The position numbers and the translations under genes were made by a program. This document shows positions 8,434-56,084 of a stretch of 64,000 nt of DNA, piece after piece. Position 1 is the first letter of the stretch. Every line of letters begins with the position of its first letter. Origin of the DNA: an uncultured Verrucomicrobiae bacterium (lineage in GTDB: Bacteria > Verrucomicrobiota > Verrucomicrobiia > Limisphaerales > Palsa-1400); contig CAVXRD010000004.1 in assembly GCA_963764165.1 (NCBI GenBank), positions 723,812-787,811 of the forward strand, given 5' to 3'. The notes under the pieces were generated by a model. That model saw only the letters and a list, made by a program, of their open reading frames with translations. It made no database searches and was not told where the DNA came from.

Positions 8434-8446
8434 TGGCGGAAGGGGT
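8434..8446 (+). repeat. Left att core, TGGCGGAAGGGGT
   Basis: Identical to 56052..56064, the reverse complement of the last 13 nt of tRNA-Ser including CCA. Confidence 0.9.
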
Positions 8447-8685
8447 TGTTTCCGCGCCCCTTTTGTCATTTAATGATCCGGGCCATAAGGCACGATTCGC
8501 CTCCGCCCTCCGAGTTCATTTCCAAGTTACTGTTAGATAAACGGTTGCACGCGAATCTTACGCAGAAACAACTCGCTTCCAAACTTGGAGTCAGTGTTAA
8601 AACGGTAAAGAATTGGGAATCCGGTCGCACGAAGCCCGGCTTGGAAATCCGGCGCGAGCTCATGCATTTCTTCTGCGATGCATGA
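8434..8685 (+). CDS. XRE-family HTH coding segment starting at the att core; predicted C-terminal domain of the recombinase in the excised form (standalone start possible at ATG 8473)
   Basis: WRKGLFPRPFCHL...KRLHANLTQKQLASKLGVSVKTVKNWESGRTKP is a clear XRE HTH. WRKG is encoded by the att core. Confidence 0.8.
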   Translation, partial: WRKGLFPRPFCHLMIRAIRHDSPPPSEFISKLLLDKRLHANLTQKQLASKLGVSVKTVKNWESGRTKPGLEIRRELMHFFCDA

Positions 8686-9168
8686 TCATCCTCCGTCGAG
8701 AATCCATGCATTCGGCATAGAAATTCGCCCGGCTTGGCCAAAGTTCAATGCGTTGCAAAAATTGAAACAGAAGCTTTTGCGCGCAGTCCACCATCCGTCG
8801 TGCGCGATGTTGCCTTTTTGCGACCGCACCGTAAGGGCTTTGACGAGTCGGCTCGGGTCTTGCACCTCAGCTCCGCCGGCCTGCCGACCTGCTTCCCGCA
8901 CCACTTTGCCCAGCACCGTACGCGCGTCATAGAGTCGCAGACAGCGGCAGGTGTGCGATCCCGATTCGCAAAAGAGGCGTACAACCGGCGGGCTTTTAAT
9001 CGCTCGCTGCACTGTTGGTCAAAAAATCGGCCGAACTTCTAAAAAGAAGTTCAGCCAGACAACAATCGGTCTGAGATTGCCGCCGCGTTTGATCTGCAAA
9101 AAATGCAGAAATGCAGGCATTCGGCCCGCTCAGTTACTTAATCGGCGGATTTAAAATAAACTTTAGGG

Positions 9169-11688
9169 CTAAATTTCTGGTGCACGCTCAATGGCCGCAC
9201 GCTTGCCGATATTCTTAATTGCGCTCGCAAGTGCCTTTTGTTTGTCTTCCTCAAATGCCGCCGAAACAGCGGGCATAATGTCGTCGGCGTCATTCAGTAA
9301 GAATTCACCCTTTTCGCGGGCTTCATCTGTCTGAAGATACCGGACAAAAGCGGTCGCACGATCCAGTCGCGACGTCATCCGGTTTCGACGTTCAACATTC
9401 GTTCCCGCAATCCGTTCACTAACAGCAGCTTTGCAGAAGGAATGATAAAGGCTTTCGTCTGCCAAGCCGCAATCCAACGAAACCATTTCCAAATACGTAA
9501 ACGTCCGGGAAAGATGTTCCAGCATATAAATACCGAACGCGGTTATTCGAATCTCATCAGCGTAAATTAATTCTTTACCGTCGGTCCCAGCTTTTTCAAC
9601 CGAATACGAATCCAAGCGGTTATTGGCTTCAACAAGCCCATGACGCAAAAGCACATCAAGCGCAGATTCGCAGTCCTGGCGCATTCCGAATTTACTTTCG
9701 AATTCGTCGATCAGACCATCCACGCGCCAATACCCACCCGAATCTGGCGACATTCCGGTGCCATGTCTTAACATCCGCAAAAGCCGAACCGTTGTGAAAT
9801 GTGAACCGTGCTGGGGCGTTCTACATTGATAAATGTTCGGTATTAAGCTCTTATTCTCGTCGTAATTAAACCTTTGTGGCACCATCATCGGCTTAATTAC
9901 TTGATGGCTGATCACCGTCCAGTGAATGTTGTTAATCATCTCTTCCACATGGGTATATCCTGAGGATACAAACTGACCGAAAAACTCCAGGGCAAGACGC
10001 GTGTTATCGCGGGAGCATTCTTCGAGAAACCGCCTGAATGCGTTGTTCCTGTCGCGAAACTGGAGCAGGCACGCAATAAAAAACTTCTTTAGTTCTTCAA
10101 AGGGAGCGTCTTCAGGAAGAGTCTCTAATATGCTGGTGCGCCCCTGCGCCGCAAGGTCCGTGATTACCATCCGAATTCTTTTCGTGAAGACGCCTGCCAA
10201 ATCTGGCGCGGCGAGATGATACCCTGCATTCTGATACGCGTCCAACACCCCCACCGTTCGCGCCCGACAATATCGCTCTTCCCGCATAGAGATAATCCCG
10301 ACACACTCTAATTCTCGAGAAATGTTCTGCGCCAAGAGAAAACAATGATCCTGCAAAACGGGCGGAAGTTGATCCGTGTTGTCAAAAGCAATGATCAGCT
10401 TCTTGCCATTCCGAAGCCAGTAATTTTTGAGTCGCTGAGCCACATAAACTTTGTCTTCCTTCCATTTGACAGCCAATGCATTCCGCGCGCGAATGAAGCC
10501 TCCACTTCCCATTCCGTACCCAGCAAGCTCCTGTTTCTTAGCAATCTCAAATTTATCTTCAAAAAGCTGCAAAAGACTCTCCATTGAACCATCCAATAGC
10601 CCGTCCTGATCTAAGGCAATAGTAATTTTGTTCCAAATGTATGTTGTTAGATCATTTTTTTCCTGTGGGGCCCGAAGGCAATCGACAATGATTGGAAAGC
10701 CACGAAGCACCAGCTGTGTTGGCGCATCGTGATATAGCAATCGCCTTAAAAACGTCGATTTCCCGGCTCCTTTGCCTCCATATAATATTAAAACCTCGCC
10801 GCCGGAATTCCTTTGAAGTGACCGTGCGATTCGGTCACTCAATTTTCCACCCGTTCTCACATTCGCAATATTCTCGGCCCCATCGGCTTTGAAAAAAGTT
10901 GTTAGATCGTCCGTTAGCCGTGTTTTCATTCCTTGCTCAACTTGCCGCGTTCCACGGGCAAAGACGTAACAATGATCCATCATTCTTTTGTCAGTGGAGG
11001 CTATTTCTCCAAAATATTTTCGGGAAATCGGCTCAAGGAATTTTGCAAATGGGTTCTTCTGTACGGTGGCATCATAGTGTGTGATACCATTTTTTGCATA
11101 ATATAACTCACGACCGACGTCCCGCCCGAAACCAAAGGCCAACTGAAGTGAACGGTCACTCGTTATTGCCTGGCACCCAAGGAGGTTATAAGCCTCTGTA
11201 AATTTATCAGAAAAAAAGGCTAAATCGTATATTACCAAGGCGTCGGCATCCATGAAATGCTTTCCAGGAATGAAACTCCGAAAAATTATAAACTCGTGGC
11301 CATTCGTCACACATGCGTATTGGCATCCGATGTCTGGACAATATTGCGCTGCCTGCTGTACTGCACTGGCAGTGCTTGCGTCGGTCGCAAGTGTCCGCAG
11401 GCGAACCGTCCGAACATCGTGCCGTTGTTTACCCGCCCTGGTTGGCAATTTGAAATAGTCGCCCTCTCTTTTCGCCTCGATTAGCAAAACGGAACGATCA
11501 GCTTTGTCGCGTAAGACATAATCGATGTAACCGGGATGCACATGCTGCTCGCACTTTACGCTTTCGCGAGGCCAAGCCAGAACTTCATGCAAAAGAGGAT
11601 CAACGATCTGGTGTCTCGTGTCGGCTTCATTAAGGTCACGAGTGCCAAATTTTTTTACAAGCTCCGCAGCGATTTCCCGTCCCGTCAT
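9169..11688 (-). CDS. HsdR_N-like PD-(D/E)xK nuclease fused to a P-loop NTPase; putative defence protein
   Basis: N-terminal NEADTR...IDYVL...LIEAKR and TNGHEF. Walker A GGKGAGKST, Walker B IIAFDNTDQ. Confidence 0.75.
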   Translation of the reverse strand: MTGREIAAELVKKFGTRDLNEADTRHQIVDPLLHEVLAWPRESVKCEQHVHPGYIDYVLRDKADRSVLLIEAKREGDYFKLPTRAGKQRHDVRTVRLRTLATDASTASAVQQAAQYCPDIGCQYACVTNGHEFIIFRSFIPGKHFMDADALVIYDLAFFSDKFTEAYNLLGCQAITSDRSLQLAFGFGRDVGRELYYAKNGITHYDATVQKNPFAKFLEPISRKYFGEIASTDKRMMDHCYVFARGTRQVEQGMKTRLTDDLTTFFKADGAENIANVRTGGKLSDRIARSLQRNSGGEVLILYGGKGAGKSTFLRRLLYHDAPTQLVLRGFPIIVDCLRAPQEKNDLTTYIWNKITIALDQDGLLDGSMESLLQLFEDKFEIAKKQELAGYGMGSGGFIRARNALAVKWKEDKVYVAQRLKNYWLRNGKKLIIAFDNTDQLPPVLQDHCFLLAQNISRELECVGIISMREERYCRARTVGVLDAYQNAGYHLAAPDLAGVFTKRIRMVITDLAAQGRTSILETLPEDAPFEELKKFFIACLLQFRDRNNAFRRFLEECSRDNTRLALEFFGQFVSSGYTHVEEMINNIHWTVISHQVIKPMMVPQRFNYDENKSLIPNIYQCRTPQHGSHFTTVRLLRMLRHGTGMSPDSGGYWRVDGLIDEFESKFGMRQDCESALDVLLRHGLVEANNRLDSYSVEKAGTDGKELIYADEIRITAFGIYMLEHLSRTFTYLEMVSLDCGLADESLYHSFCKAAVSERIAGTNVERRNRMTSRLDRATAFVRYLQTDEAREKGEFLLNDADDIMPAVSAAFEEDKQKALASAIKNIGKRAAIERAPEI

Positions 11689-11794
11689 ATAGGATTATAG
11701 TCAGAATGGAAAACAATTCACAACGCCGGAAACGAAGTTTTTTGCAAGTTTCGTTCATAATTGAACCGAACTCCGGCCCTGGCCCCTCGACCGC

Positions 11795-11954
11795 CGCCTC
11801 GCCGGGTTGGATGCGAATTCGGGTTTGTTCGCCGCGCCCTCGTCCCATTTTACCATCCGGTCAAGGTCGTTCCGGATCAGCCCGGTCGAAGGCGTTCCAC
11901 CGCGCTCGCCCAGCCTTGACTTCGGACAATGCATCCAGAGGGCGGGCGGTGACC
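11795..11954. repeat. ~160-bp imperfect direct repeat, copy 1
   Basis: Shares identical blocks ATTCGGGTTTGTTCGCCGCGCCCTC, CAGCCCGGTCGAAGGCGTT and TGACTTCGGAC with 14911..15073. Confidence 0.85.
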
Positions 11955-11984
11955 GTGCCTCCTTTCCAGAATCCTCCCGCGCCT

Positions 11985-12275
11985 GGCGTGTGGTGGGTAT
12001 ACGTATGCGACGTTAAGAAACTTGATGCAGGGCGGGCGTCTCACAAGGAATTGGCGGAAATCGCCGTGGCCAAAACCGCCGCAGTCGAACAAAATATCCG
12101 GACGGCGCAGCAACTGGCGAATTCGAGAGGAAACGTCGAAACGGTCGACTACGCCTCAGGAACAGCAAAACCGAGGTCAAGCGCTGGGGACAGTGTATAC
12201 GTCCAAGGCTACTATCGAAAGAATGGCACCTATGTGTCGTCGTATACCCGCAGCGCACCGTCACATCATCGTTAG
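11985..12275 (+). pseudogene. C-terminal gene fragment with a VxGYYRxNGTYV motif
   Basis: Ends VYVQGYYRKNGTYVSSYTRSAP. The upstream part of the tracked ORF runs through the DNA repeat and looks non-coding. Confidence 0.45.
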
Positions 12276-12278
12276 TGG

Positions 12279-12737
12279 TTATTGGCAGCTTGATGGAACC
12301 TTTACCAACGCCCCGGACCCGTCCCAAACGTATACTCGGAACGCCCGAGGCCAGCTCCGATAAATCAAAGAAATAGGATGCTTTGTTGGCGAAAACTTGA
12401 AATTCGCCATTGTTTTCATAGCGGACGTGTCATGTATGCTCGGATTTAAGGAGACGCCCGGATGCTTGTGCCAGTCTCCGACATAGTCAATCTTCCCGTT
12501 CGATTCACGACTAACATTATCGCAAAACCTCTGAGCGTGCTCACCATCAATCGTTACACTGAAGCGCTCCAAAACCGACTTCGGCCCTGGACCGATTGCA
12601 TCAACAACAATGAGCACACGGTTTTCGGTAACGTATCCCGCTAATGGCCCGCCAGTTTCAGTCCTCCACACCTTTCGAGCCTCAGTTTTGATAATATCGA
12701 GGCACTTTTTCAATATGATGACGCGGTCGAAATCCAT
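12279..12737 (-). CDS. Prokaryotic JAB/MPN+ isopeptidase (Cap3-like)
   Basis: ETGG and YVGDWHKHP...PSIHD metalloprotease motif. ATG lies 1 nt after the E2-E1 stop. Confidence 0.9.
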   Translation of the reverse strand: MDFDRVIILKKCLDIIKTEARKVWRTETGGPLAGYVTENRVLIVVDAIGPGPKSVLERFSVTIDGEHAQRFCDNVSRESNGKIDYVGDWHKHPGVSLNPSIHDTSAMKTMANFKFSPTKHPISLIYRSWPRAFRVYVWDGSGALVKVPSSCQ

Positions 12738-12738
12738 G

Positions 12739-14418
12739 CTACGCGACGGCACACCAACATTCCTTTTGAAAGTCTGTCGAAAGCGCTTCTGTCAAGAAGA
12801 TCTGATTCCCGTCTTTGTCCCTGCCAGACCAGCGAATGTAGTTCTTCGACAAATCAGTTTTCTCGCCGCCTGACAAAAGTGTTTCCACACACATCGAGGT
12901 TGCCAACCCGGCCACTATTCCCAGATCGTAGGTTGTACCTGTAAACGTGGGTTGGTCACAACCCGGGGCAAAAACTTCTCCTTTCGCTAACGGAGCCGAT
13001 GGCGGCTTGTGGTTATAGTATTGATCCAGCCAACAAAGGTAACAGGGCGTTTTCCCCGGCACCATTCTAATAATTTCGCCAGCCCATGCGCCATTCGTCA
13101 CCGAAGCAACCACTAATGGTATCCCCCTCTCGAACGAAATTTCATTCAGAAAGTGCCTCGCAGAATGAACACCCGAACAGTCAATCATAATGTCAGCGTC
13201 TTTTAGCAAATCGTAGAATTGCTGTTCCAGGGCTACGGAGCCAATCCCGCCCACTTGGAACGTAAGAGTGCTGGAATGTTCAGCGACGACAGGATTCAAC
13301 GAACAGAGGCGTTCCAGCAACGCCTTTTCCTTGTTCATGCCGAAATACTCAATACCGAGTTCGTGACGAACAGAATTATTGGGTTCAAAGTAATCAAAGT
13401 CCACTAACCCGAAGCGATTCACACCGGATGCTGCTAAATTCGCAGCAATCTTTGATCCTAAGCTGCCGCAACCAATCAGCACTGCTCGCTTTTGTTCAAG
13501 GCCGTCCAAGTCGGGAATTCGAACGTAGCGCTCCTGTTGTATGTATGGAAATGTCCGCACCAAGTGGGGGTGTCCCGTCGAATTTGTCCTGATAACCATC
13601 CAAGTGAGTCGAGTTCGATTTTGCGCTCCCACCTCTTCTTGGAAAACTAGCGCAATCCAGTAAAAATCCGCCTTCTTAGAACCCTGTACCTTCTGAAAGC
13701 ACTTTTTTACGACTTCTGGTAGGTTTTCCTGTGTGGGCGGTTCTTCGAGGTAAAACCATTCACCAGCAATGTCTTTACCGTGATTGCGGAGCAAGCCTGA
13801 GAATTGCGAGAAACATTTTATTGTTTCGGCTCCAAAATCGGCTTCGAATACTATTCCGCGCCCCTTCGTTTCCTTTTTTTGGTCTCCTTCATGTACAAAC
13901 TTCCCCCGAAATTTACCGCTCTTATGCTTGAGCTGCCCAAATCCCTCGTATGTCGAGATTGGCGGTGGGACCAACATGGCGGTTTCAGGAATATGAAAAA
14001 CGGAACGGGTCAGCGGTTCCGGGGGTTGATGTTCAACCGATACGCCTACATCTTTGAATTCTGCGATAAGTTGTTCGGCCTCGACGAGCGCGTCTTTGAC
14101 CGAGAGTGTCGCGCACCATCGACTTTCGTCAAAACCAAAAAGACAGAGCTGTCGAGAATCGATTCGATGATGTCGAATTAGCAATTTACTAGGGTGCGAA
14201 TCATAAACTTTTGGAGCGGAGGAAGGAAACGTCTCGGGAAAAACGACAATTAACTTCCTTCCCGGATCGCTCTTGGAATGCCCTACGAATTGGATCGCCC
14301 CTTCGTCGAAGGTTTCGCGAACAAGTGCGAAACCGGCGGCTTCAAGAATTTCCTGCTGTTGAGCAAACAACGGCGGGTCTTTCTCAAACCACCGCTTGTA
14401 ATCCCGATTCACACTCAT
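12739..14418 (-). CDS. E2-E1 (ThiF) fusion ubiquitin-transferase-like protein (Cap2-like architecture)
   Basis: N-terminal E2-like FPETFPSSAPKV...HH...LCL. C-terminal ThiF GCGSLGS, DFD...NSVRH, CYLC, PGCDQPTF and CWC. Confidence 0.9.
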   Translation of the reverse strand: MSVNRDYKRWFEKDPPLFAQQQEILEAAGFALVRETFDEGAIQFVGHSKSDPGRKLIVVFPETFPSSAPKVYDSHPSKLLIRHHRIDSRQLCLFGFDESRWCATLSVKDALVEAEQLIAEFKDVGVSVEHQPPEPLTRSVFHIPETAMLVPPPISTYEGFGQLKHKSGKFRGKFVHEGDQKKETKGRGIVFEADFGAETIKCFSQFSGLLRNHGKDIAGEWFYLEEPPTQENLPEVVKKCFQKVQGSKKADFYWIALVFQEEVGAQNRTRLTWMVIRTNSTGHPHLVRTFPYIQQERYVRIPDLDGLEQKRAVLIGCGSLGSKIAANLAASGVNRFGLVDFDYFEPNNSVRHELGIEYFGMNKEKALLERLCSLNPVVAEHSSTLTFQVGGIGSVALEQQFYDLLKDADIMIDCSGVHSARHFLNEISFERGIPLVVASVTNGAWAGEIIRMVPGKTPCYLCWLDQYYNHKPPSAPLAKGEVFAPGCDQPTFTGTTYDLGIVAGLATSMCVETLLSGGEKTDLSKNYIRWSGRDKDGNQIFLTEALSTDFQKECWCAVA

Positions 14419-14657
14419 TTTGCGTGTGTCCGATTCGGCTGGGGTGGACGGTCATGATGCCGTCGTGGATGTTCATCGTGATGAGCGTGCTCTTGCTTCT
14501 CGCATTCCAGGCAGTGCTTTTTTCCGCCGTCCCCCTCTACCCGGTGCTCGGGCTTGATTCGGCGCCCGTCGGGACAGGTGTCCGTATCGTGATAAACCTC
14601 GCGATGAGTTGGGGCATGTTCGTGCGAATTTGTATGAAATGGTTTTACTTTTGCCAT
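14415..14657 (-). CDS. Small (80 aa) His/Cys putative metal-binding protein
   Basis: FH..., VYHDTDTCPDG...CLEC followed by a His/Pro/Arg tail. ATGA overlap with the E2-E1 start. Confidence 0.75.
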   Translation of the reverse strand: MAKVKPFHTNSHEHAPTHREVYHDTDTCPDGRRIKPEHRVEGDGGKKHCLECEKQEHAHHDEHPRRHHDRPPQPNRTHAK

Positions 14658-14910
14658 AAACTTTTGATGTTTCAAATTATGTTTTTAGGGGGCGTTTCGC
14701 CCCAAAACCTAAATCCCTTTTGAAAGCATCACGGATGCCAATAGTGCAAATAGCCCCACTAATAGGTAGTATATTGCTCGCCAACAACAACATCTAGCGG
14801 TCAGGCAATACCCGCACGAACCGTTCAGGTGAGTCATTAAGGCTCTTAATGATTGTCGCATGTCTCACATTTGGGGACAATTTGACTCACTTATTACCAA
14901 TTCCCGCTGT

Positions 14911-15073
14911 CGCCTCGCCGGATTCGAAATGCCGATTCGGGTTTGTTCGCCGCGCCCTCTTACCAATACACCGTCCGGTCAAAGTCGTTCCAGCCCAGCC
15001 CGGTCGAAGGCGTTTCACCACGCACGAATACGCCCTGACTTCGGACGGTGCGTCCAGCGTGCGAGCGGCGACC
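14911..15073. repeat. ~160-bp imperfect direct repeat, copy 2
   Basis: Aligns colinearly with 11795..11954. Confidence 0.85.
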
Positions 15074-15327
15074 CTGAGGGCCAGAGCGCGATAACGTGGA
15101 GAAACCGCCGTGGCGCTCCATTTATTTGAATCGGCCAAGAGCAGGCAATGAACGATGGAAACGATAGCACGGAGCTATGTAAAAATCGCCCCACAATTCC
15201 GGCCGCAACAAGCCGACGCCCAACACGGAATTACAGCCCCAAACCCCAAGCTTTCGTTTATTCTTTGGTGCATGGCACTAATGAATAATATCTCAGAGAA
15301 CTCCAGTTACCTCATCAATCTCTTTGA

Positions 15328-15837
15328 TCACGATCCCCTGCTCCTCAGAAAATGCTCTGCGAGCGCTACTGCATCAAAAATGTCCATCCGGCAGTCTTCG
15401 TTCATCCCGCACTTGCGCTTTGGCGGTAGGTCATCGGCGAGATCAGCCGCAAAGCGGGAGGCCAGATTCTCGGCCAACGCATACTTCGACCCCGTCGCAT
15501 CTTTGATAAACGCAAGATTCAACTGTTTGCGTGAATATTGCTTCACATCGCGGTGTTCGCCTTCGGCCAATGCGACGATTTCTTTGGTGAGCGCCTGCAC
15601 CCGAGAGCGCCGCCTTGATCCGGGCGACCCGGTGTCTTCCAGGGCGATTGCGTTTGGCTCATACTGCGCTATAAGATTGGCTACATTCGACAGGGAGCGA
15701 TTATTTTTGTCCCCTTTCACCGTCTTGACACCCCAATCCACCAAGATGTTCTTCCCCTCCATCACGGCATAGCCGACGCCGCGCGACGACGCCACAATTC
15801 CCAAGACCCTTATATGTTTTTCTTGACGATGACTCAT
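15328..15837 (-). CDS. RuvC/RNase H-fold resolvase-like protein, possibly inactive
   Basis: VLGIVASSRGVGYAV...DWG, IALE and IFDAVALA. The usual first catalytic Asp position reads Val. Confidence 0.6.
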   Translation of the reverse strand: MSHRQEKHIRVLGIVASSRGVGYAVMEGKNILVDWGVKTVKGDKNNRSLSNVANLIAQYEPNAIALEDTGSPGSRRRSRVQALTKEIVALAEGEHRDVKQYSRKQLNLAFIKDATGSKYALAENLASRFAADLADDLPPKRKCGMNEDCRMDIFDAVALAEHFLRSRGS

Positions 15838-15848
15838 GTTTGTTTTGA

Positions 15849-16193
15849 TTATTTCTTAAAATCTACGCAAGCAATTGCTGCGAGGGTCCGGCGCCTGCGG
15901 ATGGAACCCTGGTTTCGTGTGCCATTGCCTTTTCTCCCCATCAGTGTTTTTGCCCGCGCTCGCACTTCTGCTTCAATCCTGTGATACGGGCCCGGGAAAA
16001 GCTCCGAAACCATGCACTGGAATATCGCTTCATAGGCGAGGGCGGTGTAAAGCCCCGGCTCCCGCGTGAACCGTTCGTACCTACTGACCTTGGAGGCGCT
16101 GACGACACCCAACAGGTAGGCCACGTCCTTTTGGGACAGCGCGGAGCGCTTGCGATATTTCCGCACATGATTGGAAAGATGTTGCGAAGCCAT
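15849..16193 (-). CDS. XRE-family HTH regulator
   Basis: RKYRKRSALSQKDVAYLLG....VSRYE....P. Confidence 0.85.
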   Translation of the reverse strand: MASQHLSNHVRKYRKRSALSQKDVAYLLGVVSASKVSRYERFTREPGLYTALAYEAIFQCMVSELFPGPYHRIEAEVRARAKTLMGRKGNGTRNQGSIRRRRTLAAIACVDFKK

Positions 16194-16620
16194 GAAGTGA
16201 TTATGAAAGAACTCAGCCTGCGAGTTCAGAACTCCAGACTAAACGAATAATGGCGGAGGCGGTAGGAGGGAAAATTTGCCGTGCGCGGCAACTTTCCACA
16301 AAAACAGCGAGCCTGTGAGGCCCGTCCTTGCACAATATATTAAAACACAAAATTCGCGGTCTGAAAAATGACGAGTTGAGGATATTTGGGAACCACAGGG
16401 AACGATGGGCTGTGCGCTTTGGAACTTTAGCTAAGTCTGCCGATGGCCACGCAAAACCAGACATTTCTTAAATTATGGCTCGGTTGACGTACCGATTGGG
16501 TACGTTAGCATGGCAGTCAGGGTATCTGTTGGAGCGTATAGCCAACCTGAATTAAAATTTGCCGCAAAGCGCAAGAAGTCCCTCCTTCCGCCGTTCCCAC
16601 GTTTCGTTACAATCGGTGGT

Positions 16621-18622: not shown

Positions 18623-18695
18623 TGGGGAAGGTTTGCCGTTAAAGGCAACTCTTCCCTCCTTTTTCTCTTTTACCATTCCGTTATTATAACATCAT

Positions 18696-38838: not shown

Positions 38839-38841
38839 TCT

Positions 38842-40525: not shown

Positions 40526-40531
40526 GCACCA

Positions 40532-43845: not shown

Positions 43846-43859
43846 GGAAGCAAATAGAT

Positions 43860-44425: not shown

Positions 44426-44447
44426 AGCAATTCAGTTTAGCGATTCA

Positions 44448-47400: not shown

Positions 47401-48326
47401 TTTCCAAAATAAGTGGCGATTTCCAAAACCTCCGAATCGTGTTTGTCTATGACACATTGGGCCTCCCGTTCGAATTCACTGTTGGCCTGCGTTGTCATCC
47501 GCGTGCATTCATCCTCCGCAGCATCCAACCCCGCACTACAGATAAGCTTCGCTGGCATCAAACGGCTATCCTCAAGGGACTTCACCGCGGTGTCGAATGC
47601 TGTTTGTAGCTGACCCAGCAAGGGCTTTAACATTATATGATTTCTCGAACACAAATTAACCACGCGACAATACTGGCCCTGTATTGCTTTTTCCCAGAAT
47701 AACTGCCAAATGAATACCAGTGCAACCCATGTCAGAACTAAGGGGGGGAAGATTAAGAGCAAGATCGCTGATACAATCACAATGGCCCATCGCCAACCGG
47801 TCTCCTTTGGCCAATATATAGGTTTTCTGCTATAAAATAGTTCTTTAAACCTTTTATCAAATGTTTCTATTTCCGCGAGTCTAGTGTCGATTTCGGCATC
47901 TGTTGTAATTACAACGGACGACGAATCTTCCTGTGCCGCCATTTGCAGCGCTTTCTTCCCGAGAAGGCTTTTTGCTTCATTGGGGAGCTGGATGGTGATT
48001 GCGATTGCGGCCTTGACCCGCGCCTCTTTTCGATGATACTCGGCCTTCAAATCCTCCAAGGCGGCCCGATAGGCATTCTCCGCCCGCGAAAAATCTCTTT
48101 TTACGTTGTTAACGGTTTCCGAGCGCTTTGCTTGTGCGGCTTGCAGGGCCGCGTCACGTTGTGTTTCTGCAGCACTCAAGCCCCTATCTTTATTTTTTTC
48201 TGCATCTTCCAATCTCTTCCGGCATGGAGCAATTAAGTCCGTGAGGATTCGAGTGACAAGCACCCGCATCTGGATTGGCAACTTGAATTCTGATACACCG
48301 TCATAAGGTTGTTTCGTTGTTGTCAT
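44448..48326 (-). CDS. FtsK/SpoIIIE (EccC/EssC-like) multi-domain ATPase with a TM hairpin
   Basis: Coiled coil plus TM, degenerate domain 1 (FIDPVGLG), intact domain 2 (GRPGSGKS, LIDFKKG, IDEFQ, RQGRAFGLH..L.SQ) and degenerate domain 3. Confidence 0.9.
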   Translation of the reverse strand: MTTTKQPYDGVSEFKLPIQMRVLVTRILTDLIAPCRKRLEDAEKNKDRGLSAAETQRDAALQAAQAKRSETVNNVKRDFSRAENAYRAALEDLKAEYHRKEARVKAAIAITIQLPNEAKSLLGKKALQMAAQEDSSSVVITTDAEIDTRLAEIETFDKRFKELFYSRKPIYWPKETGWRWAIVIVSAILLLIFPPLVLTWVALVFIWQLFWEKAIQGQYCRVVNLCSRNHIMLKPLLGQLQTAFDTAVKSLEDSRLMPAKLICSAGLDAAEDECTRMTTQANSEFEREAQCVIDKHDSEVLEIATYFGNCANALHKETETLKQMSLYAGDDWHSKNWENWFPDPSPEFAARIGTLSIEAPDLKQKLPTITFDFCLPALIPFVEGRCLLLEAKGRAKDIAGKAVQSVMLRMLANTPPGKLRFTFIDPVGLGQNVADYMSLADHEEALISGRAWTEPRHIETRLSELSDHMETVIQKYLRNDFPSITEYNKEAQDVAEPFRFLIIFDFPVNFSDDAVRRLVSIVKNGPRCGVFTLIVRDVNAPVPHKFNVADLETCATRIVESTDNVISSDRAQNEATEPNITFDVRIKPVPVGARENVSVALSEINSGLSHEQATLRLLQEKEIVVRGLSSAEAEQAMKKLRDAGAASSIKIAMPEDRASSEGFQAEHFVWDEAGMKECTLMLDQPPPKPLLKFIVSESGSEAKSKMKVEVPYEKLLALAELNESKWWRGSTASSLKIPIGPAGAGKLQYLVMGEGLGHHGLIVGRPGSGKSNLMHVIITTLALFYPPDEIQFYLIDFKKGVEFKAYADHKLPHALTIAVESEREFGLSVIQRLDNELKERGDRFRAAGVANISEFRKKSSNVRTPRVLLLIDEFQELFAEDDAVAREAALLLDRLVRQGRAFGLHVLLGSQTLGGAQNLPRTTIDQMGIRIAMQCSETDSHLVLASDNAAARMLSRPGEAIYNASTGTIEGNSLFQVALFKDEDRQKCLETISRLARERGVLARPIVFEGNELAKVDECAFLNGLINLTTWPVQSTSIDLLLGEAIAIRPPVTARIRRQSGRNLMIVSRDESEGACASLLVILSILLQHLPDRVRIIVADFSSPDSEGRDQIEAIRRSFSATFRIVNLQREVASMLSEIEQELRIRSDKPERRESIYLVLRGMHRIKSLREDGDDEDGHNAVELFSAILRDGPELGVHVIAWADTWANATRGIGRKRFGEFGLRTGGVMSAEDSMNVFDSPIASRLSKPHRMIFSDEDRPGQFLTFRPYAMPTVPWIEKLAVRLQSRPKESI

Positions 48327-48420
48327 GACTTGAGTGCGTTGCCACGCTTTAATTCGCGCGTCGTTGCGCTACATATTATATCCAAAACGCAAAAATCAAT
48401 CCTTTTCTTCTGCGATTGGT

Positions 48421-50331
48421 TTATTTTTGTTGGGCCTGGTGACCGGTTGCCGTTTGAATCCGATCAATTACCATTTTCGCCCCCTCTTCCATTTGAGCCT
48501 TTAACTTTGCGGTGATATTGCCGACCCTCGACTCGTGAATAGGCAGATATCTTACCTCCGTCGGAGCACCAATAACCGCCCCAATGCTCAGTTTATTGAC
48601 CGCCTCCGCCTTATACTCCAGCACTTTGTAAAAAATGTCCGTTTCTTCGTTTTGCGCTTGCGCTCCGACGATGACGCAGATGCGGCGGCCTGCGCGTGTG
48701 GCAAGAGCAGTAAGCAATTCCTGCTCGGCAACAATTTCAAAGGTGTCTAGCGTGGGCGACTTTGATTTTGTAACGTGAAAAGAGGGTTGAATCTTGAGTG
48801 CCTCCAATATCGCCGTTTCGACCTCCCTGACGGGTTTTGAGGTCTTAAATTCTTGGCTTTCAAACAAGCTGGCATCGGGGATGCGGGCCAAAGCGGCATT
48901 GAAGAGGTTCTTCCCACGGGCCAGACGTTCTTCCCGAAGCCGTTCCAATTGTTCAGTCTCTTGCGGTTTGAAGTCAGAAAATAACTGTTTCGCCTCTTCG
49001 CAATCCGGCACGGACTGAAGTGCCGCTTCCAGCTCCCTGTCAGCAGCGATATAATCTCCGCGTTTGCCAAAAAGCTCTGCCTGCCTTATATGCCGTCTCC
49101 CTTGTGCTTCCCTTTGGATCGCGCTGGCTTCCGGATCGTCTTTTTTGACTTCTAATGCAGAGCCAGCTTCCGAGAATGCTCTGTCATACTCCCCGGCAAT
49201 TAAATCTTTTCGGGCCGCGTCCATCGCTCTGGCATAGCTGAGACTCACCAAATTTGTGCGGAGAATATTCGTTTGTTGCGCGACTACGTCCACAATCACA
49301 TCCGCAGGCAAATAGCCGTTCAGCCGCACTTGAAATTTCTGCCGGCCTGGCGTCAGTTCGGACACGACGAGGGGTGTCACGCCGAATTCTGAACTCCCGA
49401 TGAAAACAGCGGCCCCCGGCGGGTCGCTTTCCAAATGTGCAGTCCCGTACACGAATTCAATTTCCGCGTTGTTGGTAATTCCGGCTGAGATGGTAATTGA
49501 TCTCTCGTTCTTGTGTTTGTGATGCCATCCAATCAGTTTGTAGTCGCCTTGCGGCACATCAAGAACGTGTGCGGGCAATTCTCCCGCTTCCAATAATTGT
49601 CCGTCGGCTTTGAACAATTGAAATGAGGCGTCCGGCTGGTTGCAGGACAATTCCACGTGGCCGATTCGTGGCGTAAAGGAGCATTTGCCTTGGACAACAG
49701 AGGCAACGTCAACTTCCTGCGTTTGCTGCCAGTGGCCGTAAGACGCAACGACTGTGTAACGATCAGTTGGAAGATTGGTTGTGATGCCGCTGCTATTGGT
49801 CAGCAGCAGTGAAAACTCTGGTCCCTGAATTGTGAGCACCGGGACTGGCGGACTGGCACTAACATTCAAACGCCCGTGGCTGCGCTTCAGTCCGAGATTG
49901 CCCAGGTTGTGTAGTCCATACCAAACAAACAGGTTCGTCGAGTATGGTTCCGCTTTCGGGTGCCTCAGCGTGAATGCGTGCCAGCCAAGCGGAATTCGCC
50001 CTCCGCTTTCAATCCGTTGCTTGTCAAAAATCGCTATCATTTCATCCTCAACGGGTCTCCCTTCTAACGTAGCAGAAAACTCAATTCGCGTGCCTTCCAA
50101 CAGACGTTCGTGTGTTCGGATTCCAAAGAGAATGCAGACGATAAGCGACCACCAAGCCAACGGTCGCAGAACACGGCACCAGTGTCTGAGCCATTTCCCT
50201 TCCGCAGCGGAGGATTCTGCGCCAACGGTTGCCATTGTTTGGCTTGTTTCGCCGCTGCCTAGCATGATCCCAATCAAACCAGCAACGAACTCATTTCGGA
50301 GCTTTCGCCTTTCGGATTTTGATGTTGACAC
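48421..50331 (-). CDS. Membrane-anchored PEGA-domain / TPR-like protein (start may be downstream)
   Basis: TM helix, PEGA signature ESDPPGAAVFI...GVTPL...G...V...GY, then TPR-like helices. Confidence 0.8.
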   Translation of the reverse strand: MSTSKSERRKLRNEFVAGLIGIMLGSGETSQTMATVGAESSAAEGKWLRHWCRVLRPLAWWSLIVCILFGIRTHERLLEGTRIEFSATLEGRPVEDEMIAIFDKQRIESGGRIPLGWHAFTLRHPKAEPYSTNLFVWYGLHNLGNLGLKRSHGRLNVSASPPVPVLTIQGPEFSLLLTNSSGITTNLPTDRYTVVASYGHWQQTQEVDVASVVQGKCSFTPRIGHVELSCNQPDASFQLFKADGQLLEAGELPAHVLDVPQGDYKLIGWHHKHKNERSITISAGITNNAEIEFVYGTAHLESDPPGAAVFIGSSEFGVTPLVVSELTPGRQKFQVRLNGYLPADVIVDVVAQQTNILRTNLVSLSYARAMDAARKDLIAGEYDRAFSEAGSALEVKKDDPEASAIQREAQGRRHIRQAELFGKRGDYIAADRELEAALQSVPDCEEAKQLFSDFKPQETEQLERLREERLARGKNLFNAALARIPDASLFESQEFKTSKPVREVETAILEALKIQPSFHVTKSKSPTLDTFEIVAEQELLTALATRAGRRICVIVGAQAQNEETDIFYKVLEYKAEAVNKLSIGAVIGAPTEVRYLPIHESRVGNITAKLKAQMEEGAKMVIDRIQTATGHQAQQK

Positions 50332-50383
50332 GCCACCCTGTCAAACATCACAGTGCTCTAAGAGTCCGATTCTTGACACCATT

Positions 50384-51139
50384 ATGGCGGAAATCAAGCC
50401 AAAAAAATACGAATTTTTCCGAGACATTTTTGACTTCGTTTTTGGAATCGAAAACAAACGAGGCGATATTCTGGATCACTGGATTACCTTTATTGACAGC
50501 TTTAGCTTCCCGCCGCAGGACTTCTACGCAGCCATCGAAAAAGAGTTGGAATCCAGAAAAATCCCCAGCATGGCAATGTTTCGGGAAGAATTCGCCGAGG
50601 GTGGAGTGCTCTCAGACAAACGCATTTATTTGAGGATGTTTCGCGAACGCCTCGCGATATATAGCTGCGCCATGCCATTTGGCAGCGGCTATGTTTTTTC
50701 CTGCCGCACGATCTACGTTCCCGCCCTCGTAAGGCTTTGGCACATCCTCGCGACACTCGTCTTTTTCTCGATTGTCGGCGGACTGTTACAAATGCTGTTA
50801 GGGACGACGTTCGCCGTCATCGCCACCGTTGGCTTGGTGTTCGCATTGGCCGGAGTGTTTCGCAATGCCGCCGCTTCAGCAGTGACCAATCTTGATGCTG
50901 TGCTCCTGCGGATACCCGTCGTATCTACAATTTATGAGGACTGGTTCAGGGAAGAGACGTATTACCGCGTTGACACGAGACTCGTGTATTTGAAGCGCAT
51001 CCCGGAATTAATCCGGGAGACGGCAGAGCACATCGTTGCTGCTAAAGGTGCGAGTTTGACCGATCAATTCGAACGCACGCCCATCTTTGGCGATCTTTAC
51101 AAGCGTCGGATGCCGGCAAGCCCGGAAGAAAAGACCTGA
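50384..51139 (+). CDS. Hypothetical membrane protein coupled to the large VirD4-like gene
   Basis: ATG 50384, two TM helices, stop 1 nt before the next ATG. Confidence 0.7.
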   Translation: MAEIKPKKYEFFRDIFDFVFGIENKRGDILDHWITFIDSFSFPPQDFYAAIEKELESRKIPSMAMFREEFAEGGVLSDKRIYLRMFRERLAIYSCAMPFGSGYVFSCRTIYVPALVRLWHILATLVFFSIVGGLLQMLLGTTFAVIATVGLVFALAGVFRNAAASAVTNLDAVLLRIPVVSTIYEDWFREETYYRVDTRLVYLKRIPELIRETAEHIVAAKGASLTDQFERTPIFGDLYKRRMPASPEEKT

Positions 51140-51140
51140 T

Positions 51141-54100
51141 ATGCCGGACGCGCATGAGCAGTTCTCCGAACAGTTTCGCACATGGGAGCGGCGAGGACGG
51201 GGCTGGCAGGTATTTCCGGAACCAATTTCGCCAGAGCCGCCTTTTCGCCCATTCACCGGGCACTTTCTTACCGAAACCGCAGCTATTGATGATGGGCGAA
51301 GGCCCACATTCCTCAGCTCTCTCGTTCGGAAATTAGGGCGAAGGCTTTCCACGCTGCCAGAGCCGACGCCAGTTCCGGCACAGCCGGAGACGGAACCCGA
51401 ACCAGACCTGCTTGAGCGCGACACCTTAGTTGAATTGCAAACTTCTTTGCCAGCCGAGCTTGATATTCATCGGGACGCTTTTGAAGAGTTTTTCTTGAGC
51501 CTGTCTTTTTGCGAGGAGCCTATTGCCTTTGAATTGCTTGGCGTTCCCGACCGTATCACGGCGCAATTTGTCGCGAATTCCGGCGACGCTTCCCTTGTGC
51601 AGCGTCAGCTCCGGTCGTATTTCCCCGAAGCTGTGTTCCAGCCACACGCAAACACACTCATTGACGCGTGGAATTCGTGCGCGGCGGAAGAATCATTGGT
51701 CATCGAATTTGGCCTTCGCCGCGAATTCATGTTTTCCTTGCGAAGCGGCAAGCTTGATCCCTTTATCGGCATTGTAGGGGCACTTTCGGAACTTCAAGAG
51801 AATGAATTCGGCCTGTTTCAAGTGATATGGCAGCCTGCCCGCCATCCGTGGCAGGAAAGCATTCTGAATTCAGTTTTGGGTGGCGATGGCAAACCATTTT
51901 TTGTCAATGTCCCCGAACTGGCCAAGGCTGCGGAGTCAAAATCTGCGCTTCCTATATTTGCCGCCGTCGTGCGCGTCCTAATATGCGCCGAAAGTTTTCC
52001 GAGAACCCTCAAATTGGCTCGCGATCTTGCAGGCGCACTCTCGGTATTTTCCGATCCGTCCGGGAATGAATTGATTCCCCTCAACAACGAGGATTATCCC
52101 CTGCCCGAACATATTGAGGACACGCTGCGCCGTCAGTCGAGACGGACAGGAATGATTCTCAACAGCGACGAACTCATCGGACTCGTCCATTTGCCGGGCA
52201 GTGCCGTTCAATCGCCAGCTTTTCAGCGACAGGGCGGCACGACAAGAGCAGCCCCTGCAACCGTCCGGCACGACAAGGGTTTGTTTCTTGGATACAACGA
52301 CCACATCGGCGAGTCGGTTGCTGTGCAACTTTCGCCGGAACAACGGGTTCGTCATATGCACGTCATCGGCGCAAGCGGAACCGGAAAATCGACGCTGCTT
52401 TTCAATATTATCAAACAAGGCATTGAAGACGGCGAGGGCATTGCTGTTTTCGACCCTCATGGTGATTTGGTAGAGAGAGTTCTGGGAATCGTGCCGGAAG
52501 CCCGTATTGATGACGTAGTCCTTGTTGACCCATCCGACGAACACTATGCCGTGGGATTCAATGTTCTGGCGGCGCATTCCGAGCTTGAAAAGACGCTCCT
52601 GGCATCCGACTTGGTATCTGTCTTTCAACGCTTGAGCACGTCTTGGGGCGATCAAATGACGAGTGTGCTACAGAATGCGATCTTGGCGTTTTTGGAAAGT
52701 GGCGTAGGCGGGACAATTGCCGACTTGCGCCGTTTCCTTATCGAGCCCGCCTTCCGCGCCCAATTCCTGAAATCGGTTCAGGATTCCGAAGTCGTGTATT
52801 ACTGGAAGCAAGGATTTCCGCACTTAACTGGCACGAAATCCATCGGCCCAATTCTCATCCGGCTTGATACGTTGCTCGCCAAGAAGCCTATCCGCCACAT
52901 GGTTTCTCAAGGGGAAAATCGCCTCGACTTTGCCCACATCATGGATTCTGGAAAAATATTTCTGGCAAAATTGCCGGAAGGGCTTTTAGGCCGGGAAAAC
53001 TCTCATCTCATCGGCTCGCTTCTCATTTCAAAATTCCAGCAGACAGCCATGAGCCGCCAGGCGCAGCATATCGCCGCCCGCCGTGACTACTGGATCGTAA
53101 TCGACGAGTTCGCCAATTTTATCACGCCGTCGATGGCGGAGATCCTTTCCGGCGCACGCAAATACCGGATTGGCCTCACGCTCGCGCACCAGGAATTGCA
53201 TCAGTTGCAGCGCAGTTCGGACGTGGCGAGCGCGGTCATGTCGCATCCCTTCACCCGTGTTGTTTTCCGTGTCGGGGATGACGACGCCAAAAAGCTCGCG
53301 GAAGGTTTTTCACATTTTGAAGCGAAAGATTTGCGCAATCTCGAAACTGGCCACGCACTTTGCCGTGTGGAGCGCAGCGACTTCGATTTTAATCTTCGCG
53401 TCCCGCTTCCCTCACCAGCGAACGATGAAGAGGCGGCTTCGCGGCGCGAGGAAGTCATCACGGCTTCGAGAAATAAATATGGGCGTCTCAAATCAGAAAT
53501 CGAGGCGCAATTGCGGGCCAAGCTTGAAACGGCTTCCTCAGAGAACCAAAGCTCGAAAACTGCACATCAGTCGGTTCGGAAAGATGCGGAACCGAAACCT
53601 GTTCCGATGCCTGCGGAAGTTCCGAAAACAGTCATCACGGAACTTCTCGCAAGAAGCGCGGAGCCGCAACCGGTGGCTTCCGAAACCAAAGTTGTCAATC
53701 CCGAAGCCAACGTGGCGCGGGACTTGGGGCGCGGCGGGGCGCAACATCAAGCAATCCAGCAGAGAATCAAAACAGCAGCGGAGGAACAAGGCTTTCGGGC
53801 AACCATCGAAAGGCAAGTTCTCGACGGATTAGGAAGTATTGATTTGCTGTTGGAACGTTCAGACCAGACCATCGCTTGTGAGATTACCATTACCACGTCA
53901 ATAGACCAAGAGGTCGGAAACATTTCAAAGTGTGCTCGCGCCGGATTTGAAGAAATCGCGATGATTTCGGTCGCCGAAGATAAGCTGCGAAAAATCGAAT
54001 CGGCAGTGGCGGCAAGTCTTGGGCCTGACGCTGCGAGAAGGGTCAAATATTTCCTGCCCGATGCGTTCATCGAGCGGCTACGTATGACGCCTCCAGTCCC

Positions 54101-54251
54101 AAAGCCAGCCGCAGAACCGGAGGTTTTCGAAAGTCGCGGGCGCCGCATCAGACGCTCATTGGCGACGATGCCGCCCGCAGAACAGAAAAGACGAGACGAG
54201 GAAGCACGCCGAGCGATGGCCGAGGCAATGCGAACGAAGCCTAAGCCATGA
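51141..54251 (+). CDS. Large VirD4/TraD-like coupling ATPase with N- and C-terminal extensions
   Basis: HMHVIGASGTGKS, FDPHGD, IDEFANF and ARKY...HQ. C-terminal PD-(D/E)xK-like H...IDLLL...IACE. Confidence 0.85.
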   Translation: MPDAHEQFSEQFRTWERRGRGWQVFPEPISPEPPFRPFTGHFLTETAAIDDGRRPTFLSSLVRKLGRRLSTLPEPTPVPAQPETEPEPDLLERDTLVELQTSLPAELDIHRDAFEEFFLSLSFCEEPIAFELLGVPDRITAQFVANSGDASLVQRQLRSYFPEAVFQPHANTLIDAWNSCAAEESLVIEFGLRREFMFSLRSGKLDPFIGIVGALSELQENEFGLFQVIWQPARHPWQESILNSVLGGDGKPFFVNVPELAKAAESKSALPIFAAVVRVLICAESFPRTLKLARDLAGALSVFSDPSGNELIPLNNEDYPLPEHIEDTLRRQSRRTGMILNSDELIGLVHLPGSAVQSPAFQRQGGTTRAAPATVRHDKGLFLGYNDHIGESVAVQLSPEQRVRHMHVIGASGTGKSTLLFNIIKQGIEDGEGIAVFDPHGDLVERVLGIVPEARIDDVVLVDPSDEHYAVGFNVLAAHSELEKTLLASDLVSVFQRLSTSWGDQMTSVLQNAILAFLESGVGGTIADLRRFLIEPAFRAQFLKSVQDSEVVYYWKQGFPHLTGTKSIGPILIRLDTLLAKKPIRHMVSQGENRLDFAHIMDSGKIFLAKLPEGLLGRENSHLIGSLLISKFQQTAMSRQAQHIAARRDYWIVIDEFANFITPSMAEILSGARKYRIGLTLAHQELHQLQRSSDVASAVMSHPFTRVVFRVGDDDAKKLAEGFSHFEAKDLRNLETGHALCRVERSDFDFNLRVPLPSPANDEEAASRREEVITASRNKYGRLKSEIEAQLRAKLETASSENQSSKTAHQSVRKDAEPKPVPMPAEVPKTVITELLARSAEPQPVASETKVVNPEANVARDLGRGGAQHQAIQQRIKTAAEEQGFRATIERQVLDGLGSIDLLLERSDQTIACEITITTSIDQEVGNISKCARAGFEEIAMISVAEDKLRKIESAVAASLGPDAARRVKYFLPDAFIERLRMTPPVPKPAAEPEVFESRGRRIRRSLATMPPAEQKRRDEEARRAMAEAMRTKPKP

Positions 54252-54491
54252 CTATTTCTTCCGTTCGAGCCAAAACCCAGGGCCACACACCCGATACGGA
54301 GAGCATGCCTCGATGATGCGCACACGTAACTTGGTGAGGCTCTGTTCAGGGTTTTCTTCCGCAAGCTGGATTGATGGTCTTGCCGCACGAAGTTCCCGCG
54401 CAATATCCGCTTTCCGTTTGCCGGACTTGATTCGCCATTTCTTTGCGAGGGCAGCCAAGTCGGATTCCTGAATTATGTTTCGTTTCCGCAT
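54252..54491 (-). CDS. Small HTH protein divergent from the integrase
   Basis: LAKKWRIKSGKRKADIARELRAARPSI, XRE-like. Confidence 0.65.
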   Translation of the reverse strand: MRKRNIIQESDLAALAKKWRIKSGKRKADIARELRAARPSIQLAEENPEQSLTKLRVRIIEACSPYRVCGPGFWLERKK

Positions 54492-54572
54492 TCCACGAGG
54501 GTGCATAAAGTTAGGTGAATTGCAAACTTTTTTCTTGCATGTTCAGTGTGTTTTTTGATAGGAAGTAGTGGT

Positions 54573-56084
54573 ATGAAGGAAAATAGTGCTCAGACGACGG
54601 TCGCGATTCCTGTTGCCATCTGGATTCGAGTGTCAACCGAAGACCAAGCCAAAGGAGAAAGCCCGGAGCGGCACGAGGCGCGTGCTCGGCTGTATGCCGA
54701 GGCCAAAGGCTGGAATGTCGTCCAGGTCTATCATCTTGAGGGCGTCAGCGGGAAATCAGTAACCGAGCATCCCGAGTGCCGCAAGATGCTTGAAGACGTT
54801 CGTTCAGGGCGGATTAAGGCTTTGATCTTCTCGAAGCTTGCGCGGCTGGCGCGAAATACTCGTGAATTGCTGGATTTCGCTGATATTTTTCGAGATTGCA
54901 ACTGCGACCTCATTTCGCTGCAAGAGTCGATTGACACATCGACCCCTGCTGGCCGCCTATTTTACACAATGATCGCTGCGATGGCCCAATGGGAGCGCGA
55001 GGAAACTGTTGAACGTGTCAAAGCATCAGTCGTCATTCGGGCCAAGCTCGGAAGCCCGCTCGGTGGCCCAGCCCCATTCGGATACCACTGGAAAGAGAAG
55101 AAGCTTGCGCCGCACCCGAGTGAAGCGCCTGTGCGCAAGCTGATATATGACCTGTTCCTTGAGCACAAGCGTAAGAAAACTGTCGTCCGGCTGCTGAACG
55201 ATGCAGGCCACCGCACGCGCAATGGAAGCCGGTTCACTGCCAAGACGGTGGGCAGGCTGCTGCAAGACCCCACCGCCAAGGGCATCCACCGAGCCAACTA
55301 CACCACTCGTGACGGCAAGGCCAAACGCTGGCACCTTAAGGACGAAAGCCATTGGGTTACGACGCCCGTTGATCCAATTGTCAGCACCGAGCTTTGGGAT
55401 CAATGCAATGCGATTTTGGAACAGACGACATGCGGCGAACGCCGAGCGACCAAGAAAGCGGTGCAACTGTTCGCTGGAATCGCCCATTGTGATTGCGGCG
55501 AGAAGATGTATGTGCCGGTCAATTCACCCAAATATGTTTGCCGAAAGTGCCGAAACAAAATTCCCGTCGTCGATCTCGAAGGTTTCTTTGCCGACGAAAT
55601 CAAGGCATTTTCCCTCTCGCCGGAGCAAATCAACGCTCACCTGTGCGAAGCGGACAAAACCATTGCGGAAAAAGAAGAGTTGCTCCGGCTGCAACTTGCC
55701 GACCAAAGGAAATTGCAGGGGGAGATAACGAACGTCTATCGGCTGTTTCAGGAAGGCCAGATCGATTCGAAGGGCTTCGGCAAATTTTATCAGCCTTTGG
55801 ACGAGCGCGGAAAACAATTGGAACAGAGCATCCCGAAGCTCCAAGCCGAGATTGACCTCGCGAAAGTGAATGGCGCATCAGCCGAGGAAGTGGTTTCCGA
55901 AGCCCGGAACCTCGCCGATCATTGGCCTCAGATGGACACCGCCGAAAAGCGCACCATCGTTGAAACAATCACCGAGAAGATCACCATCGGCAAAAAAGAC
56001 ATCGCGTTCAGCTTCTACTACCTCCCTCACGGGAAAGAAGTGACAAAAGGGTGGCGGAAGGGGTGGGATTCGAACCCACGTTAG
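54573..56084 (+). CDS. Large serine recombinase (integrase of the island); last codons overlap tRNA-Ser antisense
   Basis: WIRVSTEDQ, RLARN, PFGY, CDCG...CRKC and a coiled coil; ends WRKGWDSNPR. Confidence 0.93.
   Translation: MKENSAQTTVAIPVAIWIRVSTEDQAKGESPERHEARARLYAEAKGWNVVQVYHLEGVSGKSVTEHPECRKMLEDVRSGRIKALIFSKLARLARNTRELLDFADIFRDCNCDLISLQESIDTSTPAGRLFYTMIAAMAQWEREETVERVKASVVIRAKLGSPLGGPAPFGYHWKEKKLAPHPSEAPVRKLIYDLFLEHKRKKTVVRLLNDAGHRTRNGSRFTAKTVGRLLQDPTAKGIHRANYTTRDGKAKRWHLKDESHWVTTPVDPIVSTELWDQCNAILEQTTCGERRATKKAVQLFAGIAHCDCGEKMYVPVNSPKYVCRKCRNKIPVVDLEGFFADEIKAFSLSPEQINAHLCEADKTIAEKEELLRLQLADQRKLQGEITNVYRLFQEGQIDSKGFGKFYQPLDERGKQLEQSIPKLQAEIDLAKVNGASAEEVVSEARNLADHWPQMDTAEKRTIVETITEKITIGKKDIAFSFYYLPHGKEVTKGWRKGWDSNPR

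Follow-up and report, generated by a model that had tools for sequence, protein, structure and literature searches.

The large serine integrase gene at the right end of this island contains a state switch that, as read from the sequences, is common to many of its relatives: integration interrupts the reading frame inside the gene and removes a C-terminal XRE HTH domain from the protein, and excision would restore it. We call the whole 64,000-nt stretch of DNA analyzed here the window (features in Table 1). When the circle was formed in silico by joining position 56064 to 8447, the integrase extended to 576 aa and gained an HTH_3 domain at its C-terminus. The sequence-only reading of this DNA had proposed a 503-aa frame from ATG 54573 ending in WRKG-WDSNPR and a 576-aa product with a C-terminal HTH in the circle. 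Both were reproduced, the second by in-silico joining and a Pfam match (PF01381, 41.4 bits against a cut-off of 23). Integration leaves the tail 47.6 kb away, and the comparisons below identify the remaining short protein as the whole canonical integrase body.

Table 1. Features of the window, with positions counted from its first letter
Feature	Position	Strand	Remarks
Integrative element, 47,618 bp	8447..56064	.	52% GC vs 57% in flanks
Left copy of 13-bp repeat (attL): displaced tRNA-Ser 3' end plus crossover dinucleotide GT at 8445-8446	8434..8446	+	
Tail reading frame, 79 codons: beta-strand linker and XRE/Cro-C1 HTH (Pfam HTH_3 at about 8536-8649)	8446..8685	+	In frame with integrase in circle
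P' arm: element-derived right arm of attP, doubling as first tail codons	8447..8471	+	19/25 symmetry with integrase-side arm
Stretch outside att arm with low synonymous divergence (tRNA-Ser clade) and starts ATG/GTG/TTG	8473..8505	+	Candidate accessory site, start codon or promoter
Protein of the replication-relaxation family; candidate relaxase of the element	35267..36187	+	Pfam PF13814, E 1.4e-19
Coupling-protein-like (TrwB/VirD4) ATPase of element backbone	51087..54251	+	Below NCBIfam cut-offs
Divergent 79-aa XRE-like ORF; longest ORF from 54506	54252..54491	-	May be a regulator or a directionality factor in its own right
Large serine integrase of 503 aa, the short form encoded when integrated; catalytic Ser20, four-Cys zinc domain, coiled coil	54573..56084	+	Last six codons are tRNA antisense
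Left attP arm and crossover GT (56063-56064), within integrase coding sequence	56038..56064	+	Also rebuilds tRNA acceptor end
tRNA-Ser(CGA), target	56052..56141	-	Intact after integration

Two Pfam domains of the integrase exceed their cut-offs, PF00239 (Resolvase, E 9.6e-34) and PF07508 (Recombinase, E 1.5e-17), and the R19-V20-S21 region and the cysteines C306, C308, C323 and C326 are invariant across 61 homologues. The protein stays below the cut-offs of the curated NCBIfam recombinase families (CcrA/B/C, XisF), with best scores of 127 bits against 900 for CcrB and 115 against 375 for XisF. Its nearest homologues are Verrucomicrobiota records, which points to a host in that phylum. The plasmid and phage collections yielded no close relatives, the matches listed being at most about 30% identical.

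The two ends of the island carry the only exact copies of the 13-mer in the 64-kb window and in the 7.0-Mb genome (8434-8446 and 56052-56064). The right copy is the 3' end of the tRNA-Ser(CGA) gene on the minus strand, and in-silico joining gave identical tRNA sequences before and after integration. The repeat is 13 bp long, rather than 2, because the last codons of the integrase also supply the tRNA acceptor end. At the joined site (56064 to 8447), 19 of 25 base pairs are symmetric around the GT at 56063-64/8445-46. Across 127,950 window positions this score was reached only by the arm itself and by the 25 nt to the right of the left repeat, and attB, attL and attR scored 7, 10 and 9 of 25, so the attP dyad is beyond chance. 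A dyad attP of about 50 bp with a shared central dinucleotide, the mark of a large serine integrase, is thus present in the window (GT), and in relatives the dinucleotide is CA. The sequence-only reading had made the fusion depend on a crossover within the 13-bp repeat. That part has to be corrected: in-register crossovers from -6 to +6 all yield the same 576-aa frame, so the exact crossover position is not decisive for the fusion.

To assess how widely the arrangement is kept, we scanned GTDB genomes and found 338 stretches with integrase relatives, of which the best 80 (55-65% identity) were analyzed. The integrase 3' end lies antisense in the N-half of comM in 49 of these 80 loci, runs into the sense C-half of comM in four, lies at a tRNA gene in seven and is naturally fused to a tail in seven; 13 were unclear or incomplete. 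We take comM/yifB (TIGR00368) to be the gene elsewhere named magnesium chelatase/ATP-dependent protease, and relatives enter it at one Cys codon. The comM C-half was searched in 50 genomes and matched in 46; two further loci were left out, and 50 far-end loci were taken from 71 match rows. In-silico excision of these 50 loci, with all three frames scanned alike, gave 38 tails from 36 genomes; all are read in the integrase frame, and the two remaining frames yielded no tail. Among the 38, one tail carries a truncated HTH and another is interrupted by a contig end. The att dyads of the 38 have a median of 16.5/25 around CA. The other 12 loci comprised four with intact comM, three with no attR called, two at a contig end and three lacking a tail (one an uninterrupted comM with a 534-codon frame, two with no junction motif).

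Other groups of loci gave similar results. All five genomes of the tRNA-Ser clade had matching tails, with seven far ends in frame and one truncated remnant. The tail is in integrase phase in two more tRNA-Ser genomes, G194 and G320, which brings the in-frame genomes of this type to seven besides the source; in G276 it is out of phase, and the integrase there is partial (match to residues 339-498 only). A paralogue in the source genome (C1), 55% identical to the window's integrase, sits at the end of a 59,245-bp island in comM, and its in-silico fusion runs in frame to a tandem HTH, giving 664 aa. Among five loci at tRNA-Ala, tRNA-Asp or other targets (L007, L030, L059, L076, L010), three of the five genomes contained tail-like matches and no far end was paired with a junction.

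Because the 38 in-frame tails share ancestry, they are not 38 independent tests, and we therefore looked for independent changes that preserved the frame. The shared att DNA is read in codon phase 2 in 27 tails and in phase 0 in 11. In a quick 80-row tree, from which two short loci were removed and to which the window and its paralogue were added, the phase-0 tails form one clade with support 99, which indicates that a single double frameshift near the att site left integrase and HTH in frame with each other. Inside this clade, L065 shows a second, opposite shift back to phase 2 that is again compensated. One subclade has exchanged the central CA for TG and inserts in inverted orientation, and 5/5 elements still fuse in frame. 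In the window's own clade the target moved from comM to tRNA-Ser and the last integrase codons were recoded while the fusion frame was kept. A survey of homologues, as the earlier reading had proposed, thus finds the phase conserved and not random (38/38 comM-type tails; 5/5 inverted elements). The sequences show that the in-frame joint of integrase and tail has been kept by selection across the family.

The tail itself is also under purifying selection. In seven close Acidobacteria elements, dN/dS was 0.29 for the linker, 0.20 and 0.18 for the HTHs and 0.09 for the integrase. Together with the conserved phase and the natural occurrence of fused and split forms, this supports the proposal that the recombinase rewrites its own C-terminus.

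Both forms were indeed found by comparing homologues. An unsplit integrase-tail gene is present in seven of the best 80 loci, one with an early stop, and their junctions carry the same dyad around CA. Of 338 candidates in a targeted search, 14 proved to be fused proteins, the query itself included. The five fused genomes that were checked contain one family integrase each, and comM is intact in four of them. Three fused contigs were examined, and in two of them the island that holds the fused gene is delimited by a different serine recombinase, located at a tRNA; we interpret such a gene as a circle that another enzyme has inserted. For the tRNA-Ser subtype, the searches turned up no intact fused gene. 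The window's tail was absent from longer proteins (0/105 candidates in a weak search), and the attP-junction pattern had no match in viral contigs. Three metagenome junctions of the tRNA-Ser type were recovered: two represent one decayed integrase with a full tail, and the third an intact integrase that has lost the HTH. One public RNA run, with 0.09 of words, gave contigs that covered nothing beyond the tRNA and the conserved 5' portion of the integrase; it contained no joint and is uninformative. In G472, the flank of an empty tRNA-Ser site agrees with G055's attL flank at 109 of 112 nt. Four genomes of the same genus carry a tRNA-Ser lacking the element, and their flanks differ from the window's left flank, so the empty site of the window's own element was not found among them.

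The circle would encode one long protein consisting of integrase body, linker and XRE HTH. As the long form is all that an incoming circle can encode, it must be the one that performs attP x attB; an integrated element encodes only the short form, which would accordingly be the one that performs attL x attR. The tail would be a DNA-binding module that exists only in the excised state. Its target may be an accessory site next to attP or promoters of the element itself, and such binding would favor integration or damp the integrase and transfer genes until insertion, which would strip the tail in a single step. The short form would then excise alone or with a separate factor. We think that the odds slightly favor this reading, in which the long form integrates and the tail acts in cis as a DNA-binding module in the excised state. 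No operator emerged for the tail. The tails keep typical repressor HTH features, often in tandem, and resemble the P22 c2 and 434 repressors.

A separate factor could be encoded next to the integrase in the window's clade. The HTH ORF at 54252, named in the earlier reading, is real, and its homologues start at Met 54491. It is kept at the same place in six of 80 homologous loci, all in the window's clade, and in the C1 paralogue. We regard it as a candidate RDF or regulator.

We modeled a natural fused relative (L039, 632 aa, 18 sequences, pLDDT 75, pTM 0.35). The model contains long helices at 337-420, a hairpin at 454-469 that ends the integrase, a disordered linker at 471-490, an extra strand at 493-499 and confidently predicted HTH domains. 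Residues 1-471, left of the crossover, cover residues 15-533 of the 535 of the SPbeta integrase (9dxh_A; Z 15.9, rmsd 19.9). This part thus covers a solved serine integrase almost from end to end, which makes the short form, in the model, a complete LSR and the tail an addition. Residues 511-571 superpose on P22 c2 (Z 9.7, rmsd 1.6 over 61 residues).

The same model raises the alternative that the tail acts on the integrase protein, its first strand docking on the zinc/DBD2 domain as a built-in inverse RDF, with the long form integrating and the short form excising. The seven-residue strand at 493-499 is suggestive here: because the HTHs offer no strand to pair with, its pairing with an integrase strand can be inferred (DSSP). 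The alternating pattern of the strand persists across the two targets and the two phases, and known RDFs are described in the available text of PMC11795197 as structurally diverse and predicted to bind the CC/DBD2 junction. However, domain packing in the model is unreliable, given the pTM and the disordered linker before the strand, and the repressor-like features of the tail point to DNA binding. We consider docking rather unlikely. Compared with an RDF, a separate protein at the CC/DBD2 junction, the 38 tails have no consistent start of their own, and one low-confidence model bears on docking. A classical RDF role fits poorly: engineered integrase-RDF fusions perform attL x attR and block attP x attB (available text of PMC12286644), so a tail of this kind would strand the incoming circle. 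A broader claim is that these enzymes form a natural and widespread class of serine integrases that sets direction covalently by recombination, in which the tailed circle enzyme integrates, the tail-less enzyme excises and no classical RDF takes part, the inverse of the integrase-plus-RDF rule. We put this forward tentatively, as possible more than probable.

The HTH might instead be mainly a separate regulator, translated at attL from a non-ATG start of its own, and fusion would be tolerated in the circle but not needed. Several observations agree with this. Of 18 intact tRNA-type tails, 17 have ATG, GTG or TTG as codon 13, and synonymous divergence around this position is low (pS in the tRNA-Ser clade 0.30 in 8473-8505 and 0.77 for the HTH). 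The att motif fixes a TTG in nearly every comM-type tail. Intact tails also occur in three genomes in which the search found no integrase (G160, G168, G342). Yet no intact element examined has a stop between integrase and tail, although a stop would be harmless if the HTH were made separately, and the two compensated frameshifts restored precisely the integrase-tail frame. Among the 38 comM-type tails, a Shine-Dalgarno sequence with a start was seen in only four, a linker ATG in four and a host-side ATG in five, and a scan of 8200-9200 at attL found no consensus promoter. Stranded left ends elsewhere in the source genome are decayed. We therefore judge a separate regulator improbable.

Stand-alone tail ORFs make up 27 of the best 150 database representatives, and their N-termini are mutually unrelated. 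RNA structure as the cause of the conserved stretch at 8473-8505 was rejected (three pairs, none with a compensatory change), and an Rfam scan of 8200-9200 gave no matches. By eye, -35/-10-like spacing spans the arm; the promoter scan does not support it.

Less probable still is an inactive or weak short form (suicidal as in archaea, or milder as in Mx8), with integration locking the element in and excision needing the long enzyme of another copy: it has precedents in the available text of PMC8371274 and PMC6070905, and several genomes have repeated left ends but no integrase of their own, but the catalytic, recombinase, zinc and coiled-coil domains are all kept and integrated copies show the dN/dS of 0.09, which selection in circular phases may however explain.

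The principle of an att site inside a gene is known. The precedents named in the sequence-only reading (SSV1-type split integrases and attP in mycobacteriophage repressors) stand, but the closest bacterial one, phage Mx8, was missed. In Mx8 (and Mx9), attP lies inside int, and integration gives a new 3' end and altered specificity while the enzyme is not inactivated, a "molecular switch" in the available text of PMC6070905. The window has the same layout, with attP inside the coding region of a bacterial integrase that acquires a new C-terminus upon integration. Mx8 is, however, grouped with the tyrosine integrases in the accessible part of PMC4383910, whereas the enzyme of the window belongs to the large serine integrases, what it swaps is an entire XRE HTH module, and it is carried by an island of the mobilizable type rather than by a phage. 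The archaeal 'suicidal' tyrosine integrases of SSV1, pTN3 and pT26-2 also have the att site in the gene and are split on integration, into inactive pieces, a behavior stated to be archaea-only in the text available of PMC8371274. Their catalytic part is split off; in the bacterial serine enzyme of the window, the catalytic and DNA-binding body stays whole. Mycobacteriophage BPs has integration-dependent immunity with attP in the repressor gene, and the part lost is a degradation tag (PMC4557955, in part). There too an attP within a gene gives a DNA-binding protein state-specific C-termini, but BPs splits its repressor, whereas the island adds a repressor-like domain to its integrase or removes it.

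The SPbeta, phiC31, Bxb1 and A118/LI integrases and the RDF fusions resemble the window's system in domain order, in a dyad attP with a central dinucleotide and in a second C-terminal module. Known RDFs, in contrast, are proteins of their own, and the fusions with them are engineered and excise, whereas the fusion described here arises naturally, through the recombination itself, and exists in the state from which integration has to occur. The magnesium chelatase/ATP-dependent protease gene is the target of 12.4% of predicted site-specific LSRs in the available text of PMC10083194. Most of the window's family inserts there as well, and the window's member has moved to tRNA-Ser. That text does not mention att sites inside an LSR gene, and three family motifs were absent from the eight supplementary files of PMC10083194 (searchable text up to 400 characters per cell). 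The accessible portions of PMC4383910, PMC12884075, PMC13626063 and PMC11472951 likewise do not describe a serine integrase with attP in its own gene. We found no such precedent in the literature searched, which mostly left subscription journals uncovered. While the principle is known from the tyrosine integrases of Mx8 and SSV1 and from the BPs repressor, a serine integrase that adds a whole HTH module appears to be undescribed.

Serine integrases are major genome-engineering tools, and the control of their direction is an active question. An enzyme that gains or loses its own DNA-binding domain by recombination would be a different solution to direction control, and the two natural isoforms of one protein would allow a simple test of directionality. 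As genome-mined integrases are the short form with host-derived ends, screens of this integrase family would test the wrong isoform for integration. About 40% of one test set went without an assigned RDF (available text of PMC12286644). With these findings, gene-splitting integrases are no longer confined to tyrosine enzymes, nor to archaea as stated in 2021 (PMC8371274, as available). The window also presents a serine integrase at a tRNA gene, a situation called unknown in the accessible part of a 2014 source (PMC4383910), though later work may differ.

The island as a whole is an integrative and probably mobilizable element. Besides the candidate relaxase and the coupling-protein-like ATPase, it carries a primase, several defense-like genes, IS elements and another, unrelated serine recombinase.

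In the inverted subclade of relatives, in which the central dinucleotide reads TG instead of CA and the element is inserted in the opposite orientation (loci L025, L070, L073 and L077 with L209, L210, L212 and L213), integration produces two in-frame chimeras. One joins the integrase to the C-terminal half of ComM, and the other joins the N-terminal half of ComM to the HTH tail. The source genome (G000) holds a second island of the family, of 59.2 kb (G000:C1:1514805-1574050), which splits comM and has the centre GT; the two HTHs of its tail are separated by a stretch that includes an att-like palindrome. C-terminal halves of comM are present in multiple copies in three other genomes (G001:C4, G036:C204 and G037), some of them adjoined by an intact comM, and the elements there may carry or duplicate pieces of their target.

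Two sister integrases (L030 and L059) have their 3' ends at tRNA-Ala(GGC) and tRNA-Asp(GTC), and the tail was not found in their genomes with the profile used. Upstream of the window's integrase, a promoter-like pattern conserved in the clade lies within 54506-54572. As read by eye, it stops 7-10 nt before the ATG, which suggests that the transcript has a short leader. Its -35-like part, also read by eye, is similar to the attP arm motif.

At the left of the island, 350 bp inward of its end, a second comM-type att-arm remnant is followed by the beginning of a decayed tail (window 8800-8830), and a near-identical counterpart of this remnant is present at G000:C1:1531170. Two more left ends of the tRNA-Ser type, both decayed, lie to the left of the window (G000:C4:710597 and 716661, at spacings of 6 and 15.6 kb), and paired left ends spaced by 4-5 kb also occur in G053, G055 and G342. 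These multiple left ends suggest repeated insertion with imprecise excision that left cargo behind.

Features of the island cargo and of the adjoining region (window coordinates)
Feature	Position	Strand	Content
Ubiquitin-like defence module	9169-14675	minus	86-aa ORF, E1-E2-like protein, JAB protein, 839-aa ATPase-like protein
Second large serine recombinase	16760-18622		Within the island; unrelated to its integrase
RHS-repeat region	22883-28821
Type-VII-like cluster	42317-50331		WXG100, FtsK/EccC-like ATPase, kinase-like and PEGA proteins
ORF across the tRNA from the island	56152-57108		Paralogue on C2; homologues patchy, about 520-590 codons

The ubiquitin-like defence module contains no cyclase match. 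Relatives of the second serine recombinase bound the islands of CPR genomes that hold unsplit genes (integrase and tail naturally fused), and at locus L162 an RHS piece related to the window's RHS region follows the attP junction. The ORF beyond the tRNA looks like a truncated mobile gene. Elsewhere in the source genome, nine tRNA calls are clustered at G000:C2:1559019-1561230, one of them with a stop anticodon.
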